Shown here piece by piece: positions 1,958-32,614 of a DNA stretch of 64,000 bases (positions are counted from its first letter, which is position 1; the number at the start of each line of letters is the position of its first letter). Below the pieces are notes generated by a model. The model did not search any database. It saw only the letters and a list, made by a program, of their open reading frames with translations, and had not been told where the DNA came from. The position numbers and the translations under genes were made by a program. The stretch comes from Myxococcota bacterium. GTDB lineage: Bacteria; Myxococcota_A; UBA9160; SMWR01. The DNA lies in contig JBNLVK010000248.1 of NCBI GenBank assembly GCA_050618055.1, positions 5,788 through 69,787 of the forward strand, written 5' to 3'.

Positions 1958-4680
1958 ACGCTCCCCCGATCGACGACTTCCTCCACCCGTCGCTCGAGCT
2001 GCGCGCGGGCGGTGCCGACGCCGGCTTCGACGTCCCGGCGGCGGTGCGCGCCTACCTGAAGGCGTCCCGCGCGTACCTGCTCGAGCTGCACGCCCAGGTC
2101 GAGAGCGGGCGCATCGTCAACGAGACCCACTCCGACCTGATCGACCGCCTGCTGCGCCGGCTCTTCCAGCTCTCGGAGGAGTGCTACTTCGGCGAGGGCG
2201 GCGAGGGGCCGTCGGACCTGTGCGTCGTGGCGGTGGGCGGCTACGCACGGCGCGAGATGAGCATCCACTCGGACGTGGACATCCTGTTCCTGTACCGCGA
2301 CCGCCTGACGGACCACGTGAAGGCGGTGGCGGAGCGCATGCAGTACTGGCTGTGGGACGCCCAGGTCACCGTGGGGGGCGCTACGCGGACGCTCCAGGAG
2401 ACGCTCCAGCTCGCGACCCAGGACGAGTCGGTGCGCACGGCGGTGCTGGCGCCGCGCTACCTGGCCGGAAGCGGCGTGCTCTTCCACCAGTTCAACCACC
2501 TGCTCCAGAGCAAGCTGGTGGCGAAGCCGGAGCGCTTCATCTCGCGGCTGATCCTGGCGCAGCAGGAGCGGCACACCCAGTTCGGCGACTCGCTCTACCT
2601 GCTCCAGCCGAACATCAAGGAGGGCGCCGGCGGCCTGCGCGACTACCACACCTGCTACTGGGCGATGCAGGCCTCCGAGTCGAGCGCCCGCGGCAAGAAC
2701 GACTTCCTGCACCTGGGCCTGCTCACCGAGGAGGAGGCGGACCTCTTCTTCGGCGCGCTCGACTTCCTGTGGCGGGTGCGCAACGAGCTGCACCTGGTGG
2801 TGGGGCGCGAGCACGACCAGATGAGCTTCGAGCTCCAGGAGCAGGTGGCCCAGACGCTCGGCTACGGCGACGCCGAGGGCAGCCCGGGTCACGAGCTTCC
2901 CGTCGAGCGCTTCATGGGCGACTACTACCGCCACGCCCGCGCCGTGGCGAACTACAGCTCGCTCGTCATCGAGCAGTGCCTGGCGCGCGTGCGCAAGGTG
3001 CCGCGGCGCCGGCGCGTGCAGTACGTGGAGGGCGGCCTGCGCATCGCCAACGGCCAGCTCGAGATCCCGCACGCGCGCTTTCTGCGCGAGGACCCGGTCC
3101 AGCTGATCCGCACCTTCGCCATCGCCCAGGACCACGACGTGCCGCTCACCCGCAAGGCGCGACGGCTGATCCGCGAGCACCTGCACCTGATCGACGACGG
3201 CTACCGCAAGGACCCGGCGGCGGTGGACGCCTTCCTGCGGGTGCTCCGCGGCGAGCGCCGCGTCACCCGCTCGCTGATCGCGATGAACGAGGTGGGTCTG
3301 CTGGGGGCGTTCATGCCCGAGTGGGACCACATCGTCTGCCGCTGGCAGCACGTCATGTACCACACCTACACCGTCGACGTTCACAGCATCTTCCTGGTCG
3401 AAGAGCTGCGCCGGCTGGTGAAGGGCGACTACAAGGACGAGCTGCCCGCCCAGACCGAGTTGATCCGTGGCGTCGACGACCTGACCGTGGCGTACCTGGG
3501 CTGCCTGTTCCACGACATCGGCAAGGGGCTCGGCGGCAACCACTCGCCCAAGGGAGCGGTCCGCACCCGGGCCTGCCTCGAGCGCATGGGCCTGGACGCC
3601 GAGACCGTCGATCGGGTGGTGTTCCTGGTGGAGCAGCACCTGGTGATGTCCCACCTGGCGCAGCGCCGCGACCTCTCCGACCCCCGGCTCGTACTCGACT
3701 TCGCGCGGCTGGTGGGGGACCGGACCAACCTGCGGAACCTGTACCTGGTGACGATCGCCGACATCCGGGCGTCGTCGAAGCAGGCCTGGAGCGACTGGAA
3801 GGGGCGGCTGCTCAGCGAGCTCTTCGAGAAGACCGCCGAGTTCCTGGAGACCGGCGCCGACGACGCGGGGCGGGCGCGGGAGCTGATCGACCGCCGCGTC
3901 GAGGTGCGCCGCGAGGCGGCCGCCGTCGAGCTGGGCAAGCAGGGGGTCGACGCCGGCCTGGTCGAGCAGTACTTCGAGCTGATGCCGCGCCGCTACTTCA
4001 CGGCGCACTCGCCGTCGCAGATCGCGCGCCACGCCCGCGTGGTGCTCGACTTCGAGCCGGAGAAGCGGCTGGCCATGTCGGTGCGATCGTTCCGGGGCGG
4101 CTTTTCCGAGCTGATCCTGTGCGCCCGCGACGAGCACGGACTGTTCTCGAAGGTGGCGGGCGTGTTGACCGCCCTGCACATCAACATCCTCGGGGCGCAT
4201 GTCTACACCATGCGCTCCGGCCTGGCGCTCGAGGTCTACCGGGTGACCACGCCGGAGGGCGAGGAGAACGAGCAGTCGATCGGCTGGGAGACGCTGCGAC
4301 GCACCCTGGAGGAGGTGCTCTCCGGCGAGGTCACGGTCGCGCAGCTGCTGAAGCGGCGCGGGCGCACCGTCCGCCGCACGCGGCCCCCGTCCTCGAAGCC
4401 GGAGGCGGTCACCGTCACCAACGAGGAGTCCGACTTCTACACGATCGCCGACGTGGCGGCGGACGACCGGCTGGGCCTGCTCCACGACCTGACCGCCGTG
4501 ATCGCGGACCTGGACCTCGAGATCTACATCTCGAAGGCCGGCACCGTGCTGGATCAGGTGACCGACACCTTCTACCTGAAGGACGCGCAGGGCAAGAAGG
4601 TGCTCGACCGCAAGGTGCTCGCCGCCCTCGAGAAGCGGCTGCTGGCGGCGGCGCGCTCCGAAGGCCCGGGGAATGGCTGA
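1954..4680 (+). CDS. glnD: [protein-PII] uridylyltransferase/uridylyl-removing enzyme GlnD
   Basis: GTG 1954 overlaps the amidase stop. Nucleotidyltransferase motif GGYARREMSIHSDVDILFLY, HD domain LFHDIGKG, and two C-terminal ACT-like repeats (ELILCARDEHGLFSKV, YTIADVAADDRLGLLHDL). The first ~380 codons of track ORF 805..4680 are spurious. Confidence 0.93.
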   Translation: MNAPPIDDFLHPSLELRAGGADAGFDVPAAVRAYLKASRAYLLELHAQVESGRIVNETHSDLIDRLLRRLFQLSEECYFGEGGEGPSDLCVVAVGGYARREMSIHSDVDILFLYRDRLTDHVKAVAERMQYWLWDAQVTVGGATRTLQETLQLATQDESVRTAVLAPRYLAGSGVLFHQFNHLLQSKLVAKPERFISRLILAQQERHTQFGDSLYLLQPNIKEGAGGLRDYHTCYWAMQASESSARGKNDFLHLGLLTEEEADLFFGALDFLWRVRNELHLVVGREHDQMSFELQEQVAQTLGYGDAEGSPGHELPVERFMGDYYRHARAVANYSSLVIEQCLARVRKVPRRRRVQYVEGGLRIANGQLEIPHARFLREDPVQLIRTFAIAQDHDVPLTRKARRLIREHLHLIDDGYRKDPAAVDAFLRVLRGERRVTRSLIAMNEVGLLGAFMPEWDHIVCRWQHVMYHTYTVDVHSIFLVEELRRLVKGDYKDELPAQTELIRGVDDLTVAYLGCLFHDIGKGLGGNHSPKGAVRTRACLERMGLDAETVDRVVFLVEQHLVMSHLAQRRDLSDPRLVLDFARLVGDRTNLRNLYLVTIADIRASSKQAWSDWKGRLLSELFEKTAEFLETGADDAGRARELIDRRVEVRREAAAVELGKQGVDAGLVEQYFELMPRRYFTAHSPSQIARHARVVLDFEPEKRLAMSVRSFRGGFSELILCARDEHGLFSKVAGVLTALHINILGAHVYTMRSGLALEVYRVTTPEGEENEQSIGWETLRRTLEEVLSGEVTVAQLLKRRGRTVRRTRPPSSKPEAVTVTNEESDFYTIADVAADDRLGLLHDLTAVIADLDLEIYISKAGTVLDQVTDTFYLKDAQGKKVLDRKVLAALEKRLLAAARSEGPGNG

Positions 4681-5608
4681 GCGGGCCGACGTCGACGCCT
4701 GCGTCGACGCCTTCCTCACCCACGGAGCGGTGGAGCGCGGCCTGGCGCCGCGCACGCTCGAGGCCTACGGCCGCGACCTGGCGCGCTTCGCGGCGTACCT
4801 CGAAGGGCAGGGCGTGGCGCGCATGCGCGACGTCGGTCGCGAGCACCTGACCGGCTTCGTGGTCTCGCTCGAGGGCGACGGACTGTCGGCGCGCAGCCGC
4901 GCCCGGACCCTGGTGGCGGTGCGACGGCTGCTGCGCCACGCCGGCGAGTCGGGGGCGCTCTCCGGCGATCCGGCCGAGGGCCTGCTGGCGCCGCGCATGG
5001 CGCGCACGCTGCCGAAGGTGCTGCGCAGCGACGAGTCGGTGGCGCTGATCGAGGCCGCGGACGACGACACGCCGCTCGGCCTGCGCGACCGGGCCATGCT
5101 GGAGGTGCTCTACGGCTCGGGCCTGCGGGTGAGCGAGCTGGTGGGCCTGGTGCTCGGCGCCATCGACCGTCGGGGTGGACTGCTGCGGGTGGTCGGCAAG
5201 GGCAACAAGGAGCGCATCGTGCCGCTGGGGGAGCCCGCCCTGGCCGCGCTCGACGCGTACCTCGAGCGGGCGCGACCCTCGTTGCTGAAGGCGGCGAAGC
5301 GGACGGTCGACGCCGTCTTCCTGTCGAACCGGGGCGCGGCCATGACGCGCCAGAACTTCTTCCAGCGGCTGCGGGCCGTCGCGCGCCGCGCCGGCATCCC
5401 CCAGGACCGGGTCTCGCCCCACGTCCTGCGCCACGCCTTCGCCACCGACCTGCTGGAGGGCGGAGCCGACCTGCGCGCCGTCCAGTCGATGCTGGGCCAC
5501 GCGGATCTCTCCACCACCCAGGTCTACACCCACGTGAGTCGCGCGCGGCTGCGCGAGACCGTCGAGGAACGGCATCCGCGCGGCGCCGGACGTTCGCGCA
5601 GCGGATGA
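4673..5608 (+). CDS. xerD: Tyrosine recombinase, XerC/XerD family (XerD-like)
   Basis: ATG 4673 overlaps the glnD stop. Core-binding N-terminus VERGLAPRTLEAYGRDLARF. Catalytic region RVSELVGL, HVLRHAFATDLLEGGADLRAVQSMLGHADLSTTQVYTHV. Sits in housekeeping context next to scpAB. Confidence 0.88.
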   Translation: MAERADVDACVDAFLTHGAVERGLAPRTLEAYGRDLARFAAYLEGQGVARMRDVGREHLTGFVVSLEGDGLSARSRARTLVAVRRLLRHAGESGALSGDPAEGLLAPRMARTLPKVLRSDESVALIEAADDDTPLGLRDRAMLEVLYGSGLRVSELVGLVLGAIDRRGGLLRVVGKGNKERIVPLGEPALAALDAYLERARPSLLKAAKRTVDAVFLSNRGAAMTRQNFFQRLRAVARRAGIPQDRVSPHVLRHAFATDLLEGGADLRAVQSMLGHADLSTTQVYTHVSRARLRETVEERHPRGAGRSRSG

Positions 5609-31142: not shown

Positions 31143-31373
31143 CCGCGCGCCGCCAGCCGGTCCGTCGACGAGGGGTCGGGCACCACGGCCGCGCAGTATA
31201 GCCCGGCGAGGGGTTCCACCCGCGCAGCCGTCGCCGGCGCGCCTGTGCCAGACTGGTCCGCGGAGACCCGCCGGCTACCGGCTGATCGAAGAGTGCGTCG
31301 GCTGGCTGGGCGCCCGGGCGATCCGGTGGGTGCTGCTCTTCGCGGAGGGAAAGCCGGTGAGGTCGGACGCGCG

Positions 31374-32318
31374 GTGAGCACGGCCACGATCCACTACCTC
31401 GTCCGCTCCGCCTACGCCTACACGCTGACGGAATGGATCGACTCCTATTCCGCCTGGAAGCCACGCATCCGGATCGTCCCCTACGAGAGCCTGGGCGGCT
31501 GGCTCGGCCCGGGCGTCTTCGTCTTCACGGACCTCGAGCGGCTCTCCCCGCCGCTCCGGCGCCGGGCGGCTGCGGTGCGCGAGGCCGCGATGCGGGCCGG
31601 GTGCCCGGTGCAGAACGATCCGCTGCGCTCGATGGGTCGCTTCGATCTCCAGCAGGTCCTGAGCAACGACTTCCGCGTCCACCGGGCGGAGGGCGGCGAC
31701 GCGAGCATGCTCTCCGACGTGCGCTTTCCGGTCTTCCTGCGCGACGAGGACGAGCACGGCGGACAGTCCGAGCTGATCCGCGACCGGACCCGCCTCGAAC
31801 GCGCGCTGGCCAAGCGTCCGGGCAGCCTGGTGGTCGAGTTCCTGGACACCTCCGACGCGAACGGCCTGTTTCGCAAGTACGCGGCCACGCGCATCGGCGA
31901 CGCGCTGTTCGCGCGCCACCTCTTCTACAACCGGCGCTGGAAGGTGCGCCAGGCGCGGGTCTTCGGCGAGGAGCTGGCCCGCGAGGAGCTCGACTACGTG
32001 CGCGACTTCCCGCACCGCGAAGAGGTCGCGGCGGCCTTCGAGAAGGCCCGCATCGAGTTCGGGCGCATCGACTACGCCTTCTACGAGGGCCGCCTCCCGA
32101 TCTGGGCGATCAACACCAACCCGCACCTGAAGACCGCCGTGCTCTCCACCAACGACCACGGCCGCGAAGCCCACGCGCTCGCCGACGCCTACGTCGACCG
32201 AGCCTTCGAGGCCCTGCTCGCGAAGGTCCCGGCCGACGCGGAGCGCGTCTGGTGCGGATCCCGCCTGCGCGCCGCGGCCGGCGCCATGCGAACGGGCCGC
32301 CCGCGCATCCGACGCTAG
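31374..32318 (+). CDS. Hypothetical protein, weak ATP-grasp-like pattern
   Basis: GTG 31374. Blocks FPVFLRDEDEHGG, SLVVEFLD, RKYAATRIGDALFARH and C-terminal GRIDYAFYEGRLPIWAINTNP resemble the ATP-grasp layout. Assignment is by eye only. Confidence 0.55.
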   Translation: MSTATIHYLVRSAYAYTLTEWIDSYSAWKPRIRIVPYESLGGWLGPGVFVFTDLERLSPPLRRRAAAVREAAMRAGCPVQNDPLRSMGRFDLQQVLSNDFRVHRAEGGDASMLSDVRFPVFLRDEDEHGGQSELIRDRTRLERALAKRPGSLVVEFLDTSDANGLFRKYAATRIGDALFARHLFYNRRWKVRQARVFGEELAREELDYVRDFPHREEVAAAFEKARIEFGRIDYAFYEGRLPIWAINTNPHLKTAVLSTNDHGREAHALADAYVDRAFEALLAKVPADAERVWCGSRLRAAAGAMRTGRPRIRR

Positions 32319-32340
32319 CGGCGCGGTATGGGGCGGCACG

Positions 32341-32538
32341 TGGCGTCCCCAACGGGAGTCGCTCCAGAGCGATGGAGGGGAAGCCGACATCGCGACGAAC
32401 GCCGCGTTGGGGAACCCATGTCGCCGCAGGGCAGCGGCAAGGCGTCCCCAACGGGAGTCGCTCCAGAGCGATGGAGGGGAAGCCGACATCGCGACGAACG
32501 CCGCGTTGGGGAACCCATGTCGCCGCAGGGCGGCGGCA
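32341..32538 (-). repeat. Two tandem 99-bp units (97/99 identical), each ending with a copy of the last ~20 nt of the adjacent tRNA-Glu
   Basis: Plus-strand ggcgtccccaacgggagtcg occurs at 32342, 32441 and 32540 (the tRNA itself), an exact 99-bp period. The units differ only at 32433/32532 (a/g) and 32440/32539 (a/t). Confidence 0.85.
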
Positions 32539-32614
32539 TGGCGTCCCCAACGGGAGTCGAACCCGTGTTGCCGCCTTGAAAGGGCGGAGTCCTAGGCCTC
32601 TAGACGATGGGGAC
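32539..32614 (-). tRNA. tRNA-Glu (anticodon UUC), CCA encoded
   Basis: Reverse complement is GTCCCCATCGTCTAGAGGCCTAGGACTCCGCCCTTTCAAGGCGGCAACACGGGTTCGACTCCCGTTGGGGACGCCA. Acceptor GTCCCCA/TGGGGAC; anticodon stem CCGCC/GGCGG with loop CTTTCAA; T arm ACGGG-TTCGACT-CCCGT. 76 nt, same layout as E. coli tRNA-Glu. Confidence 0.95.

Follow-up and report, generated by a model that had tools for sequence, protein, structure and literature searches.

Islander islands integrate into tRNA genes and leave attL/attR direct repeats (PMC4383910), and tRNA gene fragments and pseudo-tRNAs arise from integrating elements (PMC9897764). In the ssrA islands of Dehalococcoides, a conserved element-derived motif abuts each direct repeat and served to locate the insertion point in the T loop (PMC3146451). 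A further arrangement is found behind tyrT of Escherichia coli, whose distal repeats and rtT are treated in PMC3318445, citing Bosl and Kersten (1991). Behind tyrV of E. coli K-12 (NC_000913), a 178-bp unit is present in 3.1 copies. Each copy closes with the final 19 nt of tRNA-Tyr, and the small RNA annotated there, RttR, terminates exactly at the CCA of such a repeat. The E. coli unit also carries an inverted complement of the tRNA 3' segment, GGGGAAGGAT, that closes the predicted fold (p = 0.026), and the fold itself is not significantly stable (z −0.9). The tyrT transcript terminates inside the distal repeats, and rtT is released from it by processing; to our knowledge, the origin of this arrangement has never been explained.

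The array described here is best classified among the att repeats of tRNA genes, as a small and structured variant whose anatomy resembles that of tyrT. It lies in a 64,000-nucleotide stretch of DNA (the window) from a metagenome-assembled genome of the Myxococcota with a size of 5.49 Mb in 314 contigs, 84% completeness and 72% GC. The sole tRNA called by ARAGORN in the window was an intact tRNA-Glu(UUC) with an encoded CCA on the reverse strand (32539–32614). It matched the Rfam tRNA model RF00005 over its full length with 58.5 bits, and this model matched 32542–32614 and nothing else in the window. The genome-wide tRNA list contained no second tRNA-Glu with the UUC anticodon in the assembly.

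Behind this gene, Tandem Repeats Finder (TRF) detected a 99-bp period at 32342–32559 (2.2 copies, 98% matches, score 422). Read on the tRNA strand, as are all array features below, the layout is tRNA(...O)-X-O-X-O-flank, in which O is the 20-mer from the T loop to the CC of tRNA-Glu, CGACTCCCGTTGGGGACGCC, and X is the remaining 79 nt of each unit. Copy 1 of O is part of the gene itself (tRNA positions 56–75, att-type core; 32540–32559), and copies 2 and 3 close the downstream units at 32441–32460 and 32342–32361; its inner border in the array is C56 of the T loop. These three exact, same-orientation direct repeats at 99-bp spacing were the only ones in the whole assembly, where a reversed control pattern gave no match. 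The proximal unit (32440–32538) consists of X, O and a terminal T, and the distal unit (32341–32439) is identical to it at 97 of 99 positions. Because one of the two differences is T/A at position 99 (the other is C/T at position 7), the proximal unit ends in ...GCCT and the distal one in ...GCCA. The initial annotation had reported the two units, the recurring 20 nt, the near-identity and the differing ends, and all of these were reproduced; the tRNA-Glu array is a real feature. The partial copy that it had noticed before the array is also present, CGTGCCGCCCC at 32330–32340 following copy 3 of O and resembling the unit start TGCCGCCGCCC as the degenerate start of a further unit.

The flank of the array extends 22 nt to the stop codon of a convergent protein gene (31338–32318, forward strand), which matched no Pfam family and lies outside the cassette. 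No sigma-70 promoter-like or intrinsic terminator-like site was found at the locus, and the GC content is flat around the array, with no compositional island. The earlier statement that no integrase lies nearby held: a PF00589 scan of the genome placed no integrase next to the array. The only tyrosine recombinase of the contig, 27 kb away, is of the XerD type (window 4673–5608, forward strand; TIGR02225, 334 bits, above cut-off), a housekeeping gene and not an island integrase.

Neither unit is a tRNA or an additional tRNA gene. ARAGORN and Infernal made no tRNA call within them, recognizing the real gene alone, and a cmscan search of the units at E ≤ 10 returned neither rtT (RF00391) nor any other Rfam family apart from noise. 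The initial annotation had described X as shuffled tRNA-Glu pieces, a description that stands for one of the two pieces. The fragment GCGGCGACATGGGTTC (32511–32526; 32412–32427 in the distal unit) matches tRNA positions 41–56 at 14 of 16 bases, a score equalled in six of 2000 dinucleotide shuffles (p ~0.02 under other scoring). By contrast, the resemblance of CCATCGCTCTGGAG to the tRNA 5' end CCATCGTCTAGAG is at chance level (p 0.07–0.23), and this stretch is homologous instead to a unit behind tRNA-Arg. The 7-bp acceptor-like closure suggested for the units can be drawn, but the minimum-energy fold pairs otherwise.

In the predicted fold, each unit forms a short GC-rich hairpin directly after the preceding CCA (hairpin 1; 32521–32538 and, in the distal unit, 32422–32439), and then a long hairpin in three parts, whose outer stem would pair TCCCCAACG (“anti-O”; 32504–32512 and 32405–32413), an inverted complement, with CGTTGGGGA of O. 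The fold energy per unit was −50 kcal/mol with z about −3.3, and the units behind tRNA-Glu and tRNA-Arg together gave z values of −3.2 to −3.5 against shuffles. The opposite strand was predicted to fold at least as stably (z −5.4 versus −4.5 on the tRNA strand), which argues for an inverted repeat at the DNA level rather than an RNA structure specific to the tRNA strand. The X:O duplex of the Glu unit had an energy of −27.8 kcal/mol (p = 0.027 against shuffles), and complementarity of X to its own O was weaker in the other arrays described below (p = 0.12 for Arg and 0.24 for Leu, with Arg, Leu and the relative G117 spanning 0.12–0.24). Since the X:O complementarity is no more than modestly above chance, we regard anti-O as suggestive only.

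We scanned all tRNA 3' tails of the genome for short-range repeats of their own tail and found three genuine tRNAs with such repeats: Glu, Arg(TCT) and Leu(GAG). Behind tRNA-Arg(TCT) lies one 96-bp unit (contig C58:1285–1380) that ends in positions 56–76 of its own tRNA. The 40 nt preceding O in this unit, CGTTCGTCGTGA...CTCTGGAG, align without gaps to the corresponding block of the Glu units, CGTTCGTCGCGA...CTCTGGAG (32461–32500 in the proximal and 32362–32401 in the distal unit, flush with O), at 27 of 40 positions and with the same spacing to O, the alignment having a 9-mer at its start and an 8-mer flush with O. Among 200,000 random 40-mers drawn from the genome, the mean was 11.3 ± 2.9 matches and the maximum 26 (p < 5e-6 for the observed 27). 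Both kinds of unit are predicted to adopt one common three-helix architecture, with the middle stem CGUUC/GAGCG conserved and with outer and apical stems that differ in sequence and keep their pairing in both; the Arg unit also opens with a predicted hairpin equivalent to hairpin 1. A homologous and similarly folded unit behind a second tRNA thus points to a defined cassette rather than random debris.

At C58:1285–1457, tRNA-Arg(TCT) is followed by the Arg unit, beyond which lies a tyrosine integrase gene on the opposite strand. The unit recurs after a partial tRNA-Arg at the end of contig C63 and the start of contig C226, where the tRNA 3' half from the anticodon loop and a second copy of the unit make up a direct repeat of ~141 bp; this second copy looks like the other att end of the island. 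The tRNA-Arg(TCT) island appears to use the anticodon loop and not the T loop. Homologues of its integrase (50–68% identity) adjoin tRNA-Arg(TCT) or tRNA-His in other metagenomes, and none of those loci has an X-O unit, which shows that the island does not generally include one. Among these homologues (P0001–P0041; L077–L079), the called open reading frames run through the antisense tRNA-Arg and acquire spurious tails such as APRGGxEPPTRCLEGSxSIQLSYRG, an overextension that results from GC-rich DNA without stop codons. An origin of X as a remnant of integrase C-terminal coding sequence, with attP inside int as in phage Mx8, was considered and found no support, because the tails of the homologues are antisense tRNA.

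At C76:553–792, tRNA-Leu(GAG) is trailed by three units of 51 bp that all close with GAATCCTCTCTGCCGCACCA, the third being degenerate with two changes; because two copies are identical and the assembly is built from short reads, the true copy number is uncertain. No resemblance was seen between X(Leu) and X(Glu), and neither X(Arg) nor X(Leu) resembles the body of its own tRNA. The genome also contains att repeats of the T-loop type for tRNA-Lys, tRNA-Met and tRNA-Cys and of the anticodon-loop type for tRNA-Gly(CCC) and tRNA-Arg(TCG), and integrase genes adjoin four tRNAs (Lys, Cys, Arg(TCG) and Arg(TCT)). Displaced 3' fragments were seen for these five tRNAs, Gly-CCC (C213), Lys-UUU (C278), Arg-UCG (C24/C109), Met (C43/C172) and Cys (C212/C290). 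The partners lie on one contig for Gly (2 kb) and Lys (6.8 kb) and on separate contigs for the other three, whose islands therefore span contig breaks.

In two related genomes, O bounds elements at tRNA-Glu, of which the one analysed bears an integrase. The tRNA-Glu(UUC) gene is nearly identical across the order. One relative (G064) has, adjoining this gene, a 1.9-kb element with genes for a tyrosine integrase (PF00589) and an excisionase-like protein (HTH_17); this element terminates in GGGTTCGACTCCCGTTGGGGACGCCA, a direct repeat of the tRNA-Glu 3' end. In another (G021), the O 20-mer recurs 9.5 kb downstream of tRNA-Glu, and in at least two other relatives a sequence resembling an integrase C-terminus was seen by eye on the opposite strand directly behind the gene. 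O is an att core in relatives. The flanks of tRNA-Glu on either side hold nothing common to this genome and 29 relatives, and the assembly of the closest relative, from the same genus (G001), lacks the tRNA-Glu locus.

The distribution of X is narrow. BLAST searches of 41 genomes and then of 193 genomes of the order recovered X(Glu) and X(Arg) in none of the 193, the hits being chance matches in coding sequence, and none of 225 genomes of the class has a short Glu array. Exact-pattern searches of public genome and metagenome contig collections gave no match for two unit-specific patterns and one chance match, in an unrelated terminator region, for the shared-block pattern. An nhmmer profile of the unit recovered the Glu and Arg units alone from their own genome, with coding DNA as the next matches. 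No parent element with the CGTTCGTCG...CTCTGGAG arm beside an integrase turned up in any of the searches. That X is missing from relatives and public contigs is expected of recent mobile DNA and not of a conserved RNA gene.

A fourth array was found in a genome of another family of the same order (G117; locus L082, at the end of contig C14), with at least 2.3 units of 103 bp whose O ends derive from tRNA-Arg(TCT). Its 82-nt interior is unrelated to those of the present genome and repeats, in diverged form, the flank that follows the final O (the first 32 nt identical, the rest ~70%), the duplicated flank including the end of a convergent gene. The repeat begins at tRNA position 56 or 57 in every one of the four arrays (the three of this genome and that of G117), and so uniform a border speaks for a breakpoint that is site-specific, not random.

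The Glu array shares several traits with the direct repeats of Islander and ssrA islands, a group that includes tandem “accretion” arrays and integrase-less cis-mobilizable elements (CIMEs). Its repeat reproduces the 3' portion of the tRNA that is targeted, which restores the gene, and has its inner border in the T loop; in a relative, an element with an integrase is delimited by the same core; a conserved motif foreign to the tRNA adjoins the repeat; and several copies are stacked behind a single gene. It differs from tRNA islands in that the 79-nt interior has no integrase, cargo or compositional signature and no parent was found, in that the units are near-identical copies and not different islands, and in that the interior holds a piece of the core in inverted form and is predicted to form a long hairpin. 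Only an autonomous island, and not a CIME, requires an adjacent integrase, which is absent here. As with described tRNA fragments and pseudo-tRNAs, a partial tRNA lies beside a canonical gene, where it could wrongly be taken for a tRNA or a pseudogene; in contrast to those, the Glu fragment is reiterated at a short fixed period and forms part of a structured unit also present behind another tRNA.

Our preferred reading, to which we assign a probability of about 0.5, is that the array consists of integrase-less att cassettes that arose by site-specific recombination targeting the T loop and were later duplicated. Three copies of O with two of X imply an O-X-O ancestor and thus an insertion-like event that duplicated the segment from the T loop to the 3' end. 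The fixed border suggests a T-loop origin, as do the integrase elements of relatives that employ this core, the T-loop integrases of this genome and the conserved non-tRNA block that abuts O at two different tRNAs. In the history that we infer, an element recombining at the T loop would have entered behind tRNA-Glu and duplicated O, giving O-X-O. Either just its core-adjacent arms would then have persisted, or a miniature integrase-less derivative would have been inserted from the outset, an outcome that may be likened to a cis-mobilizable element. The second copy in O-X-O-X-O could then stem from re-insertion at the O that had been regenerated or from copies of O recombining unequally, with tRNA-Glu staying intact because O restores its 3' end. 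The units form strong inverted-repeat hairpins on both strands. Lying between the tRNA and the convergent gene, they are probably transcribed as a trailer of tRNA-Glu, in which they may act as a terminator or processing block. Among the origins proposed by the initial annotation, stacked att-site scars are the best supported, given the att core in a relative, the T-loop border and the other T-loop att repeats with neighbouring integrases in this genome, although “scar” is too passive a term. Several observations weigh against this reading: no integrase, cargo or compositional island adjoins the array, no parent element with a matching arm was found, the integrase family on the Arg side normally lacks the unit and its island appears to use the anticodon loop, an interior of 79 nt is far below the usual size of an island remnant, the G117 case looks like plain duplication of a flank, and every X begins like the flank behind the last O.

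A selected function resembling that of the tyrT/rtT trailer appears rather unlikely as the explanation of the units. They would be co-transcribed with tRNA-Glu and cut at each ...GACGCC(A/U) to give stable hairpin RNAs of ~99 nt, or would serve as the terminator of the tRNA. By analogy, tyrT/rtT would be the closest functional counterpart: the tyrV repeats and the end of RttR show a comparable anatomy, in which units repeated directly behind a tRNA gene close with its final 19–20 nt, CC(A) included, and in both systems an inverted complement of a tRNA segment within the unit closes the outer helix of the predicted fold. The folds of the Glu and Arg units surpass those of shuffled sequences in stability, their outer and apical stems pair despite sequence change, and no other terminator is visible at the tRNA-Glu locus. 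On the other hand, the Glu units differ from tyrT/rtT in having no sequence or covariance-model similarity to it, about half the length and no tpr-like small open reading frame. The absence of the units from all 193 genomes of the order, the equal or better folding of the antisense strand and the weak X:O complementarity in the Arg, Leu and G117 arrays also speak against selection for an RNA. These points, together with the lack of tRNA likeness by covariance model, also bear on the co-transcribed tRNA-like mini-RNAs that the initial annotation had offered as a third option. A trailer function and a recombinational origin are compatible and could coexist.

Plain tandem duplication of the tRNA 3' end and its flank by slippage or unequal crossing-over, with neither a recombinase nor a mobile element, is in our judgment unlikely. 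The G117 interior, as a copy of its flank, fits this explanation as well as it fits att cassettes; X starts like the flank following the last O in each of the four arrays, and unequal crossing-over would readily yield more units once two copies of O were present. However, the similarity of X(Glu) to its own flank is not significant beyond ~11 nt (p = 0.27), and three copies of O with two of X still need an O-X-O ancestor. Duplication also leaves unexplained why four arrays have the same T-loop border and why a 40-nt block occurs at two tRNAs with the same final base before O.

It is more doubtful still that the Glu and Arg units represent a family of ~100-nt non-autonomous mini-elements spreading at tRNA 3' ends, or a source of rtT-like trailer RNAs with base-paired tRNA-like ends. 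Each mini-element would carry a conserved arm, CGTTCGTCG-N-CTCTGGAG, and a segment complementary to the 3' end of its target tRNA. The unit would therefore form a hairpin mimicking the target site, in the manner of the folded single-stranded att sites of integron cassettes or the CTX phage, and arrays would form by repeated insertion into the regenerated target.

Decay and later re-duplication of tandem tRNA-Glu genes, a second origin offered by the initial annotation, is improbable. The unit length equals a tRNA plus a ~23-nt spacer, GTTCCCCAACG resembles the tRNA 5' end GTCCCCATCG, and the internal fragment matches positions 41–56 as described above. These fragments are not in tRNA order, neither ARAGORN nor Infernal called a cloverleaf, and a perfect 20-nt 3' end attached to an unrecognizable body is not the product of uniform decay. 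Moreover, the body with its 40-nt block is homologous to the tRNA-Arg unit and not to tRNA-Glu, and no relative has tandem tRNA-Glu(UUC) genes at such spacing. An assembly artefact with a wrong copy number or a chimeric join is very improbable, even though the genome is an incomplete one in many contigs and related arrays lie at contig ends (C63/C226 and G117), because the array sits midway in an 89-kb contig and its three junctions (A+TGCCGCC, T+TGCCGCT and A+CGTGCC) are distinguishable, unlike those of a collapsed or inflated repeat.

Short arrays reiterating tRNA 3' ends can be mistaken for pseudo-tRNAs or missed in annotation, and the present one marks a tRNA gene, apparently the only copy of its kind, as a hot spot of recombination. 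Its significance is modest unless mobility or processing is demonstrated. If the units prove mobilizable or processed, they would rank with the smallest known att-bounded cassettes and would provide a second, independent case of the tyrT/rtT arrangement; if not, they amount to the usual debris that tRNA-targeting elements leave behind, here in a genome assembled from a metagenome.

Two minor observations concern tRNA calls and the tRNA-Glu locus of relatives. ARAGORN returned several “tRNAs” of 80–95 nt with non-tRNA-like tails, such as a “tRNA-His(atg)” at C248:5730–5820, which are likely false positives. In two relatives from different families (loci L020 and L040), a palindromic element of ~120 nt, AGCGCGGCGTCTTYGC...CTGCGGGCTCCT...GTACAC..GTAC...GTCGCCCTTC...AATCCACC, lies right behind tRNA-Glu, a possible small RNA or dispersed repeat; L020 seems to carry a second, partial copy of it.
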